From the IMG/VR virus record IMGVR_UViG_2698536505_000018: 4,907 nt of DNA; one strand, given 5' to 3'. Source of the stretch: a virus (lineage: Duplodnaviria; Heunggongvirae; Uroviricota; Caudoviricetes). Positions 3,001 to 4,907 of this stretch are shown here, in pieces (positions within the stretch are counted from its first letter, which is position 1; each line of letters starts with the position of its first letter). A program made the position numbers.

Positions 3001-4907
3001 AAGCGCACCACAGGCTACCAGCAGGACAATAATCACCACACACAGAACACGGTTCATATCCCCCTCACCCCACCAGCCCTGACAAAGTTAAGACGCGCCA
3101 GGCAGTGGAAAAGCAAATAGCAACCAGCATATTAGTGAAAATGAAATGCCGACGATTACACAGAGGATCTTCGCCAGCGTTATGAGCTTGTCTGACATGC
3201 TTAATCCTCTTCACGATTTCAACGCAATGACCAGTTTTGCCAGCCCATACAGCATCGGAGACACAGCAATACCGACCGCCACCCACTTAATAGCAAAAGC
3301 CAGCGCTCTGCTGACGTCATCAGTTACAGGCGCTTTCAGTTCAAGGCCGTCTTTCATAGTCAATCTCAACAGAATTCGTTTATACTTTCCTATGTTCTCC
3401 TTTGCCTTACTCAAGGTCAGAAACACAAAACCCCGTTTGCGGCCAACAAACGAGGTTTTACTTTTATTCACTTAGCTTTTGCCAGTTCGCAGGATTTCGT
3501 GTTACCCACCCGCGTTGACCAACGTCATTTTCAGCAAAATATTCTACTTGCCTGTCAATTCCCCAGCACGCCAGTGCACTTTCCTGGTCTCGCCGGGATA
3601 CCTGACCGTAGCAATTATTTGAGCGGATACGGCAGTCTCTGCCACCGTCCTTAATCCACCAGCGAACGCTTCGCAGGCACCTTTTAGATCACCTGCATTA
3701 ATCCGTCTGTAAAACGTAGACGGGAAACACTTACCGGGGCCAATGTTATAAGGACAAAATGACGCGATACCCGCCTTCTGGGGTTCGGTCAGCGGTACTT
3801 TAATATTGCGCTCCCCCCACTCCAGCGCCTTATCACGTTCAATGGCGTTAACCTGGTCGCATTTTTCCTTCGACAACTTCATGCCCGGGACGACAGGTTT
3901 ACCATCCACTCGGGTGGTACCGCGGCAGATGGTCCAGATCCCCGCACCATCACGGTATGCCGTGGTGTGGTTACCTTCTTTTTCGTCAAGAAACTGGTCG
4001 AGGATTTCAGGCGCAGACGCCCCTGCACCAATCAGCGCCAGAACGGCAGCCGACAGGCCGTATCTGATTTTTGCGTTCATGGATATTTATCAGGGTTTAT
4101 CGATTTCAAATCCCTGGATATGTTAAGTCTTCAGGCCAGCGGTGGAGTCTTCAGAGAACCAGTAATTATTCCCGGTAGTTTTCCTCTGTAGGTTATCAAC
4201 ACATCCTGCGCCTCTAAAATTACGGGGCGCTTTTCCGGCAACGGACCATCCCCTTCACATAACCCGGCAGCAACATCCATGAAAAACTGCTTCGCCTGCT
4301 TTTTCGCCTCAGCTTCGTAAAACTCCAGCGTGGCACCTTCAGTACGGTCAAGACTAATCGCCACATCTGGCAACAACAGTGACGGATACCCACCAATTTC
4401 CAGTGCCACAGTAACAGTAACAGTAACAGTAACAGTAACAGTAATCTTATCCGGGTAATTATTTATCCCTTTAACACCCAGTTCGTATTTTTTCTTCATC
4501 GCTTTACTCCCCCCGCGCCGCCTTACGACGGTCCTCTCTGATTTTGAAATACAGGTTAGTCAGATACGTCAGCAGGCCAAACAGCAGACTCCCCAGCACA
4601 CCGATTGCCACCCACTGGGACGGAGAGACTTTGTCCAGCAGCTGCAGTAACCAGTATCCCGTCCCCACTGCTGACGTGGTGTATGACACACCTGTTGTGA
4701 TTTTTTCCATCTGATGTATGTCTCCGTCACCGCCGACAGAAAATGAAAGTAAAGAAAAACAAATAAATATCCTCCGGCATAGCCGGAGGTTTTTCAAATG
4801 CGCCTATAAGGCTCTCTTACCAGCCGCGCCCTAACAGGCGCACACGATCTGACATTTGCATCCAACTTCGTTACTTACGGCCCGTAAACGGGCTGCCCGG
4901 ATAGGGA

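Follow-up and report, generated by a model that had tools for sequence, protein, structure and literature searches.

Two conserved small reading frames for predicted membrane peptides in the endolysin-Rz gap of a prophage lysis cassette

In the Qin prophage of Escherichia coli K-12 the endolysin gene rrrQ abuts rzpQ with no insert, and an earlier note gave the same arrangement for lambda and phage 21. Extra DNA at the same junction raises the question of what it encodes and whether it serves lysis. This question was addressed with a stretch of 4,907 nucleotides from the Caudoviricetes record IMGVR_UViG_2698536505_000018 of IMG/VR (hereafter, the window), where 486 bp lie between the lysozyme stop and the Rz ATG (3055-3057), close to the 490 bp given in that note. 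The note had placed in this gap two closely spaced genes for small helical membrane peptides on the lysis strand, and this anatomy proved correct. The first open reading frame (ORF), ORF1, encodes 48 amino acids as described, and the second, ORF2, starts at 3198, 12 nt past the ORF1 stop, with the Shine-Dalgarno site AGAGGA 6 nt before its ATG and within the 12-nt spacer. The length of 38 residues claimed for ORF2 has to be corrected to 36. What the note overlooked is that ORF2 of the window is a frameshifted pseudogene, that the adjacent lysozyme gene is also frameshifted, and that the two small genes are separable. Judged by sequence comparison, both frames are conserved over hundreds of prophages and phages, which is more than chance. 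The features of the insert that bear on the two genes are as follows.

3211-3357, minus strand: ORF1, 48 aa (MKDGLELKAPVTDDVSRALAFAIKWVAVGIAVSPMLYGLAKLVIALKS), with a polar N-terminus and a C-terminal helix or membrane anchor
3199-3210, minus strand: 12-nt spacer AGAGGATTAAGC from the ORF1 stop to the ORF2 ATG, containing the Shine-Dalgarno site of ORF2
3088-3198, minus strand: ORF2 as found in the window, 36 aa (MSDKLITLAKILCVIVGISFSLICWLLFAFPLPGAS), stop included in the span
3065-3198, minus strand: ancestral span of ORF2, 43 aa in relatives, with the TGA stop at 3065-3067
3129-3132: 2-bp insertion that frameshifts ORF2 (ATAT; AT in relatives; alignment columns 433-434)
3358-3393, minus strand: 12-codon in-frame upstream extension of ORF1, which gives the 60-aa form annotated in relatives by the Prokaryotic Genome Annotation Pipeline (PGAP)

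Coding evidence and membrane character of ORF1 and ORF2

ORF1 matches the hidden Markov model of phrog_1115 over its full length (residues 1-48, E = 2.7e-32) and corresponds to ECs_2740 in prophage Sp14 of E. coli Sakai. Its profile collected 113-218 protein clusters from a collection of 5.8 billion proteins, all from Escherichia or Salmonella and all named 'hypothetical'. Scanning a one-genome-per-species collection with the ORF1 alignment gave 36 pattern matches and no confirmed locus, and the species range of ORF1 therefore rests on the protein database. Among 5,426 complete E. coli genomes, ORF1-like DNA was found at 1,909 places in 1,594 genomes, and ORF1 is present in only 12 sequenced phage records.

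The conservation check set beforehand for ORF1 was a comparison of the ratio of nonsynonymous to synonymous change (pN/pS) among reading frames. Over 14 distinct nucleotide alleles, among them those of three diverged Salmonella lineages, this ratio is 0.25 in the frame of ORF1 itself and 0.36-3.9 in the other five. In the C-terminal helix, the window and the Salmonella locus L085 (related loci are labelled L002, L003, L085, L088, L090 and so on) differ at 15.5 of 25 synonymous sites and at 4.5 of 65 nonsynonymous ones. For Ser48, one lineage uses the codon TCG and another AGT. Judged by these substitution patterns, ORF1 passes the check: it is protein-coding and under strong purifying selection as a protein. 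A 109-aa ORF on the plus strand (3146-3475) was considered as a gene and rejected, being interrupted within its most conserved part in L085; its pN/pS of 0.36, against 0.25 for ORF1, is explained by the fact that its frame shares third codon positions with ORF1.

Two in-frame starts are candidates for ORF1, giving forms of 60 and 48 aa. In most relatives an in-frame ATG lies 12 codons 5' of the 48-aa form, and the 60-aa protein annotated from it by PGAP begins M-G/A/E-KYKRILLRLT. This upstream codon is ATG in 78 of 84 related loci and ATA (3391-3393) in the lineage of the window, where its position is preceded by AAGGAG (3397-3402); in L085 the extension depends on a GTG that follows a 26-nt insertion. 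All lysis-cassette copies retain the internal ATG together with a GAGG or GGAGG 5-6 nt before it, and so does L088, in which the 12-codon extension diverges by nonsynonymous changes. The frame of the extension is open with some start codon in every lineage.

The intact form of ORF2 matches phrog_4906 over residues 1-43 (E = 7.3e-24), and the 36-aa version of the window does so over residues 1-28 only (E = 3.4e-12). Sakai carries the gene as ECs_5740 (Sp14), ECs_5707 (Sp5), ECs_5722 (Sp9), ECs_1966 (Sp10) and ECs_5732 (Sp12). This gene passes the conservation check too: by tblastn, the 43-codon frame is open over its whole length in 276 of 276 phage records, although the amino-acid sequences diverge by about 30%. 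Nearly all of these phages are Shiga toxin (Stx)-converting; examples are BP-4795 (ORF50), P13374 of the O104:H4 outbreak strain (ORF53), Min27, YYZ-2008 and Shigella phage 7888, and in most records the site is unannotated. Of the 5,426 complete E. coli genomes, 1,750 contain ORF2-like DNA, at 4,657 places in all and with as many as 11 copies in one genome.

The 23 intact alleles of ORF2 always have 43 codons, with Trp33 (W33) and Gly43 (G43) invariant and with replacements that exchange one hydrophobic residue for another. The pN/pS of ORF2 is 0.51 overall, with 0.36 for the N-terminal and 0.62 for the C-terminal half. In a single allele class, the comparison of L002 with L003 over the C-terminal 17 codons gave 8 synonymous and 2 nonsynonymous changes, a split to which we assign, by our own estimate, a binomial probability of about 1e-3 under neutrality. 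Codons 18-25 (ATT TCA TTT TCA CTA ATG CTG GTT), of which those before the frameshift correspond to 3133-3147 in the window, do not differ by a single nucleotide among the 23 intact alleles, and the codons flanking them vary both synonymously and nonsynonymously. ORF2 is thus very probably protein-coding on the evidence of its alleles, with a proof that is weaker than for ORF1.

Neither peptide had been recognised in the earlier note. It is true that both families are of unknown function, but both are already catalogued (phrog_1115 and phrog_4906, and RefSeq hypothetical proteins), which gives them a name without a mechanism. No match to Pfam (E up to 10), NCBIfam or PADLOC was obtained for ORF1 or ORF2, nor to PADLOC for two related peptides. 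Holin models in Pfam, PHROGs and NCBIfam matched neither peptide, whereas the holin of the cassette does match PF04971. By BLASTP, ORF1 and ORF2 do not align with each other; ORF2 does not align with Rz either, and the idea that it is a duplicated Rz membrane anchor was discarded on this ground.

The predicted membrane character of the two peptides differs. The strongly hydrophobic 19-mer of ORF2 (residues 11-29) has a Kyte-Doolittle value of 2.86, versus 2.97 for the membrane anchor of Rz, and is followed by a tail of 14 residues with one charge. The best segment of ORF1 is moderately hydrophobic (1.90), rich in Ala, Gly and Ser, and contains lysines; it resembles the signal-anchor-release (SAR) domain of the neighbouring lysozyme (1.67) and a holin helix (1.83), and it nearly reaches the C-terminus, given that the protein ends four residues further on (ALKS). 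AlphaFold models each peptide as a single long helix, spanning residues 8-47 in ORF1 and 2-42 in ORF2, with predicted local distance difference test (pLDDT) scores of 83 and 90, respectively.

Gene order in relatives and decay of the window copy

The cassette in which the two genes lie in the window comprises, in addition to them, the following genes.

4504-4710, minus strand: P21-type class II holin (pinholin-like), 68 aa (PF04971, E = 9e-33; annotation of the ML35 copy)
4131-4499, minus strand: YdfR/DUF1327 gene, between the holin and lysozyme genes (PF07041, E = 3e-44)
3544-4080, minus strand: phage lysozyme with a SAR-like N-terminus (PF00959)
2590-3057, minus strand: Rz i-spanin gene (PF03245, E = 1.6e-45)
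2652-2837, minus strand: Rz1 o-spanin gene, inside Rz (PF06085, E = 4e-19)

Sakai Sp14 has the same genes in the same order and is the intact version of this cassette, with the holin ECs_2743, YdfR ECs_2742 and the endolysin ECs_2741 followed by ORF1, ORF2, Rz/Rz1 and pchC. In all loci in which ORF1 precedes ORF2 the spacer between them is TGAAGAGGATTAAGCATG or TGAAGGGAGGATTAAGCATG. The gene upstream of ORF2 varies: this place can be taken by ORF1, by an antirepressor (Ant or P22_AR_N) or by a 31-aa peptide. Whichever it is, the gene that directly follows ORF2 is Rz, or else a short ORF1-like gene with Rz behind it. The ORF2 stop is 0-12 nt from the next start in every case, across at least three variants of the Rz start; in the window the native TGA (3065-3067) lies 7 nt before the Rz ATG. 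In the order typical of Stx phages, found for example in Sakai Sp5, Sp9, Sp10 and Sp12, the endolysin gene is followed by the Ant (or P22_AR_N-type) antirepressor, ORF2 and Rz; Sp5, BP-4795 and P13374 carry ORF2 between ant and Rz. The ORF2 ATG then overlaps the antirepressor stop, or sits 3 nt past the stop of a tiny 31-aa peptide (MKMIKMDWKFLLVWLIPFLWVVARLITAIKG, phrog_6632). Other prophages have the endolysin, a peptide of the 31-aa type, ORF2, a 38-aa variant of ORF1 with a GTG start, a 28-aa ORF1-like peptide (MSAELIRAMAFAIRIVAIAVLVWAIRWW) and Rz.

ORF1 is also found without ORF2, as in Salmonella L085, where it lies between the SAR lysozyme and Rz. As read from these gene orders, ORF1 and ORF2 are separable, ORF2 being tied to Rz without ORF1 in Stx phages and ORF1 occurring without ORF2 even outside lysis cassettes. 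A P21-type holin is present in all examined E. coli contexts that retain a holin, and the lysozyme has a SAR-like N-terminus in all of them. Pinholin and SAR endolysin are used by about 99% of Stx phages (PMC8136144).

The endolysin-Rz gap holds further small reading frames in some relatives (L092 2406-2498; L097 2286-2498 and 2765-2851; L098 2639-2751). Up to four tiny hydrophobic ORFs occur in tandem, and fusion products of such micro-ORFs are also seen, for example P0074. In Sakai Sp4 (NC_002695.2 1184614-1184948) the gap is shortened and a 114-nt ORF, ECs_1094, overlaps a lengthened Rz, ECs_1092; this is apparently a deletion derivative of the same module. In the Salmonella locus L090 (2805-3168), tandem ORF1 paralogs follow a tail-spike/SASA gene and precede a DUF1353 gene, far from the lysis genes. 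The first of them has a hairpin and an antisense TATACT, and one base separates its stop from the start of the second.

The copy of the module in the window is not the native one. The 2-bp (AT) insertion changes the frame of ORF2 after residue 22, leaving residues 1-22 native and the remainder out of frame. This allele is found in 4 (+2) of the 84 related loci, and PGAP marks the nearly identical copy in E. coli ML35 as 'frameshifted'. In the lysozyme gene one nucleotide is missing between 3666 and 3667, which places the last 40 or so residues out of frame, as judged by alignment with L003, ML35 and PhiR12_3; the deletion is likewise seen relative to strain 2014C-3011. Its PF00959 match ends at residue 140. 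Because of this frameshift, the cassette of the window could not by itself lyse a cell. ORF1 of the window differs from its catalogued relatives by Asn3-to-Asp. The frameshift in ORF2, the ATA in place of the upstream ORF1 ATG and the frameshift in the lysozyme gene together indicate that the copy is decaying. By comparison with its relatives, ORF2 of the window is a frameshifted remnant of a conserved 43-codon gene rather than the native gene, and the module is probably no longer functional here.

A stretch 99.6% identical to the window is present in ML35, and the annotation of that strain serves for the region 3' of Rz. There, on the minus strand (155-2126), lie a gene for a PerC-family regulator (1812-2126), the remnant of an NleH pseudogene and the type III effector gene espS (155-1030), a region that is an exchangeable effector locus ending the late region of the prophage. 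The YdfR/DUF1327 gene contains a perfect hexanucleotide repeat, (ACAGTA) x 6.2, at 4408-4444, which encodes a (Thr-Val)n run. The protein has 122 aa in the window versus 114 aa in ML35 and Sakai, indicating that the repeat number differs among strains.

The hairpin upstream of ORF1 and a candidate antisense RNA

Two further elements lie at or upstream of the ORF1 start region.

3427-3459: hairpin, terminator-like on both strands, between the lysozyme stop and ORF1
3357-3386, plus strand: sigma-70-like promoter match (TAGTCA-18-TATACT), antisense to the ORF1 start region (consensus scan)

The hairpin has a 15-bp stem (-23 kcal/mol) flanked by an A-tract and, on the opposite side, a U-tract. The terminator scan reports it on the antisense strand, on which the RNA of the window has a C-A mismatch. 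The hairpin precedes ORF1 in E. coli and in the Salmonella loci L085, L088 and L090, including the tail-fibre context, and 6 of its 14 pairs are preserved through changes on both sides. It is absent 3' of the endolysin gene (R) of Sakai Sp5, which is without ORF1. The fact that it is present with ORF1 in all contexts and absent in Sp5 indicates that the hairpin belongs to the ORF1 module.

A site homologous to the antisense promoter match was found independently in L003, L085 and L088 (TTGGCC-16-TATACT in L088), and the consensus scan did not report it in L090. Four diverged lineages share its -10 hexamer TATACT unaltered, and no synonymous change is seen in the sense codons that lie over it; in a common E. 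coli allele the hexamer is TACACT. Promoter-like matches occur in the window at chance frequency, with 3 found and 2.8 expected. Should the promoter be active, transcription ending at the hairpin would yield a cis-antisense RNA of about 75 nt covering the ORF1 leader and the AAGGAG site, which we treat as a lead and not as a finding.

Searches for such an RNA among catalogued ones were negative. The whole window has no Rfam match at E up to 1, and 0 of the 63 Hfq-bound orphan small RNAs (sRNAs) listed in PMC4104026 (Table S2) map to the endolysin-ORF1 gap in Sakai coordinates. In that table, obtained by crosslinking and analysis of cDNA (CRAC) with Hfq, EcOnc10-12 lie 3' of Rz, EcOnc22-24 in tail genes, and EcOnc33, 35 and 51 5' of holins. 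Prophage sRNAs, namely the Pas sRNAs and EcOnc33/35/51, have been mapped upstream of holins in published work (EcOnc: PMC4104026), and the Pas sRNAs lie 5' of the holin and not at ORF1. Just 5' of the holin gene of the window there is a GC-rich hairpin (CCTCCGGC-ATA-GCCGGAGG, 4771-4789) with T-runs on both strands.

Possible roles in lysis and alternative explanations

The reading that we tentatively prefer, at somewhat less than even probability, is that ORF1 and ORF2 may be late-expressed inner-membrane accessory factors of lysis by pinholin, SAR endolysin and spanins. Both peptides would be synthesised late, from a Q-antiterminated transcript that reads through the hairpin 5' of ORF1, and would insert into the inner membrane. 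There they could act as accessory or regulatory factors of envelope disruption through helix-helix contacts, with pinholin triggering, SAR-endolysin release or i-spanin activity as possible targets. This reading is suggested mainly by two facts: ORF2 has a fixed position against Rz, and it has been kept by functional Stx phages, nearly all of which have cassettes of the pinholin/SAR type.

Small membrane-anchored products of lysis cassettes are already represented by the antiholins (S21-71, lambda S107, P1 LydB and T4 RI), P2 LysA and the Mu gp25 releasin. Accessory proteins of this kind modulate the action of the holin or of the SAR endolysin and do not themselves break the envelope. ORF1 and ORF2 differ from them in being much smaller (43-60 aa) and without sequence similarity and, for ORF1, in occurring also outside lysis cassettes. 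Neither peptide matches a holin, spanin or releasin model. Holins have a charged hydrophilic C-terminal tail, which neither peptide has. Holins are further marked by lethal permeabilisation of the membrane at a programmed time and by a dual-start motif, for which ORF1 offers its two candidate starts. An i-spanin has a transmembrane domain followed by a long periplasmic coiled coil, whereas ORF2 has a transmembrane domain and then only 14 residues. An o-spanin has a lipobox signal, and the context of a lipobox cysteine is found in neither peptide; a genuine Rz/Rz1 pair follows them. The Mu gp25 'releasin' is an accessory membrane protein of its lysis cassette (PMC9239132), which is of the pinholin/SAR-endolysin type as at the window. 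Releasin (DUF2730) combines an N-terminal transmembrane segment with a cytoplasmic domain, whereas ORF1 and ORF2 have no DUF2730 match and are too short for a soluble domain.

Several observations weigh against a role in lysis. Lambda and phage 21 lyse their hosts without ORF1 or ORF2, and since these phages and Qin lyse or once lysed without them, the two genes can be accessory at most. A literature search by peptide sequence, locus tag, PHROG number and lysis-cassette terms found no characterisation of either protein and nothing that ties them to lysis. In other Salmonella prophages ORF1 is found 3' of genes for tail fibres and DUF4376 proteins, in one case as two paralogs in tandem, and it carries its own hairpin everywhere, including there. 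About 17 of the 84 prophage copies of ORF2 are disrupted. The pN/pS of ORF2, although the lowest of the six frames, is near that of one antisense frame (0.59) and is therefore weakly discriminating. Its invariant codons may reflect recombination, as an anchor, or a DNA or RNA signal rather than constraint on the protein.

The position of ORF1 behind tail-fibre genes is a second classic site for morons, and it fits better with a moron than with a dedicated lysis gene. In this explanation, which is unlikely but a serious contender, the peptides benefit the lysogen, for example by blocking the entry of superinfecting DNA or by altering the envelope, and sit at a permissive junction of the late operon with no role in lysis. 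HK97 gp15, a moron-encoded single-pass inner-membrane exclusion protein, would be a precedent, and the lambdoid morons (lambda bor and lom, HK97 gp15) are likewise small envelope proteins of mosaic distribution, inserted where related phages have nothing. At this locus too, genes that adjoin each other in related phages (rrrQ and rzpQ in Qin) are separated by additional DNA, and the content of the R-Rz gap varies by phage among Ant, P22_AR_N, ORF1, the 31-aa peptide or nothing. ORF1 is frequent in prophages (1,594 genomes) but found in only the 12 phage records mentioned above. In the tail region of L088 it has terminator-like hairpins on both sides, a downstream terminator being seen only in this Salmonella tail-region copy; elsewhere the hairpin is upstream rather than downstream, which is unlike morons. 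Also unlike morons, no sense-strand promoter above the scan threshold was detected between the hairpin and ORF1 in any lineage, and ORF2 is chained to Rz and retained in 276 active phages. The absence of a PADLOC defence model match speaks against this explanation as well. So does a search by coordinates in the supplements of uninduced Sakai ribosome profiling, which list no new small gene where ORF2, unannotated at that time, lies in Sp5 and Sp14; this negative is weak, given that the reads map to more than one copy.

The hairpin and the antisense site bear on a different explanation, which we consider doubtful, namely that the module of ORF1 works in the manner of a type I toxin-antitoxin system. 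In such a unit ORF1 would depolarise the membrane, and its leader would be covered by the putative 75-nt cis-antisense RNA. This RNA and the hairpin would silence ORF1 in the lysogen until late antitermination overrides them, upon which ORF1 would help to collapse the membrane potential and so trigger lysis by the pinholin and SAR endolysin. The hairpin, the antisense TATACT and ORF1 travel together through three unrelated genomic contexts; the antisense promoter match is at the same place in four sequences and is the sole promoter-like match of the region in L003 and L088. The leader codons K-Y-x-R-I have no synonymous variation where the core has a pS of 0.5-0.67, which suggests constraint at the nucleotide level. 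In size (48-60 aa) and in its single hydrophobic helix ORF1 is typical of type I toxins (hok/sok, ldr/rdl, zor/orz, ibs/sib), a possible antisense RNA and terminator lie over its 5' leader as in these systems, and its in-frame upstream start recalls control by a leader ORF. Against this stand the chance frequency of promoter-like matches, the antisense site missing from the scan of L090, the TACACT allele, and the lack of any Rfam family or of an Hfq-bound sRNA listed at this place in Sakai Sp14. ORF1 has no Pfam similarity to Hok, Ldr, Ibs, TisB or Zor, and unlike type I toxins it lies in a module within a late phage operon for which no dedicated toxin promoter was found. The antisense RNA is only predicted, and in the window its hairpin has the C-A mismatch.

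The least probable explanation considered here is that the peptides have no function of their own, ORF2 being a leftover or a translational 'adapter' that feeds ribosomes to Rz after insertions have separated it from the endolysin gene (R), and ORF1 a selfish filler. It would account for the constant proximity of the ORF2 stop to the next start (0-12 nt), for central codons that are invariant as DNA beside a C-terminal half that tolerates many changes and frameshifted alleles, and for the many copies in decaying prophages, that of the window included. A coupling adapter, however, needs neither a fixed length of 43 codons nor a hydrophobic helix nor an invariant Trp33. The 8 synonymous versus 2 nonsynonymous changes in one ORF2 allele class and the strong purifying selection on ORF1 at the protein level also argue against it, as does the lack of detectable similarity between ORF2 and Rz.

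Elements of the preferred lysis reading and of the toxin-like unit could be combined in a model that is clearly improbable as a whole. ORF1 with its hairpin would be a mobile 'trigger peptide' guarded by an antisense RNA, a type I toxin-like depolariser recruited to pinholin/SAR-endolysin cassettes, and ORF2 would be a hitherto unrecognised fourth lysis component of Stx phages that works with the Rz i-spanin, the two jointly timing lysis. If this were true, the trigger peptide and ORF2 would set the timing of lysis and hence of Shiga toxin release.

The value of these observations lies in the two gene families and not in the decaying copy of the window. ORF1 is a tractable tiny membrane gene that moves between lysis and tail-fibre junctions with a hairpin and a possible antisense RNA. 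ORF2, present in about one third of complete E. coli genomes, is among the most widespread unstudied genes of Shiga-toxin phages, in which it is a near-universal and largely unannotated neighbour of Rz. Given that toxin release depends on phage lysis, an additional membrane component of the pinholin/SAR-endolysin/spanin pathway, if that is what these genes encode, would be directly relevant to it.

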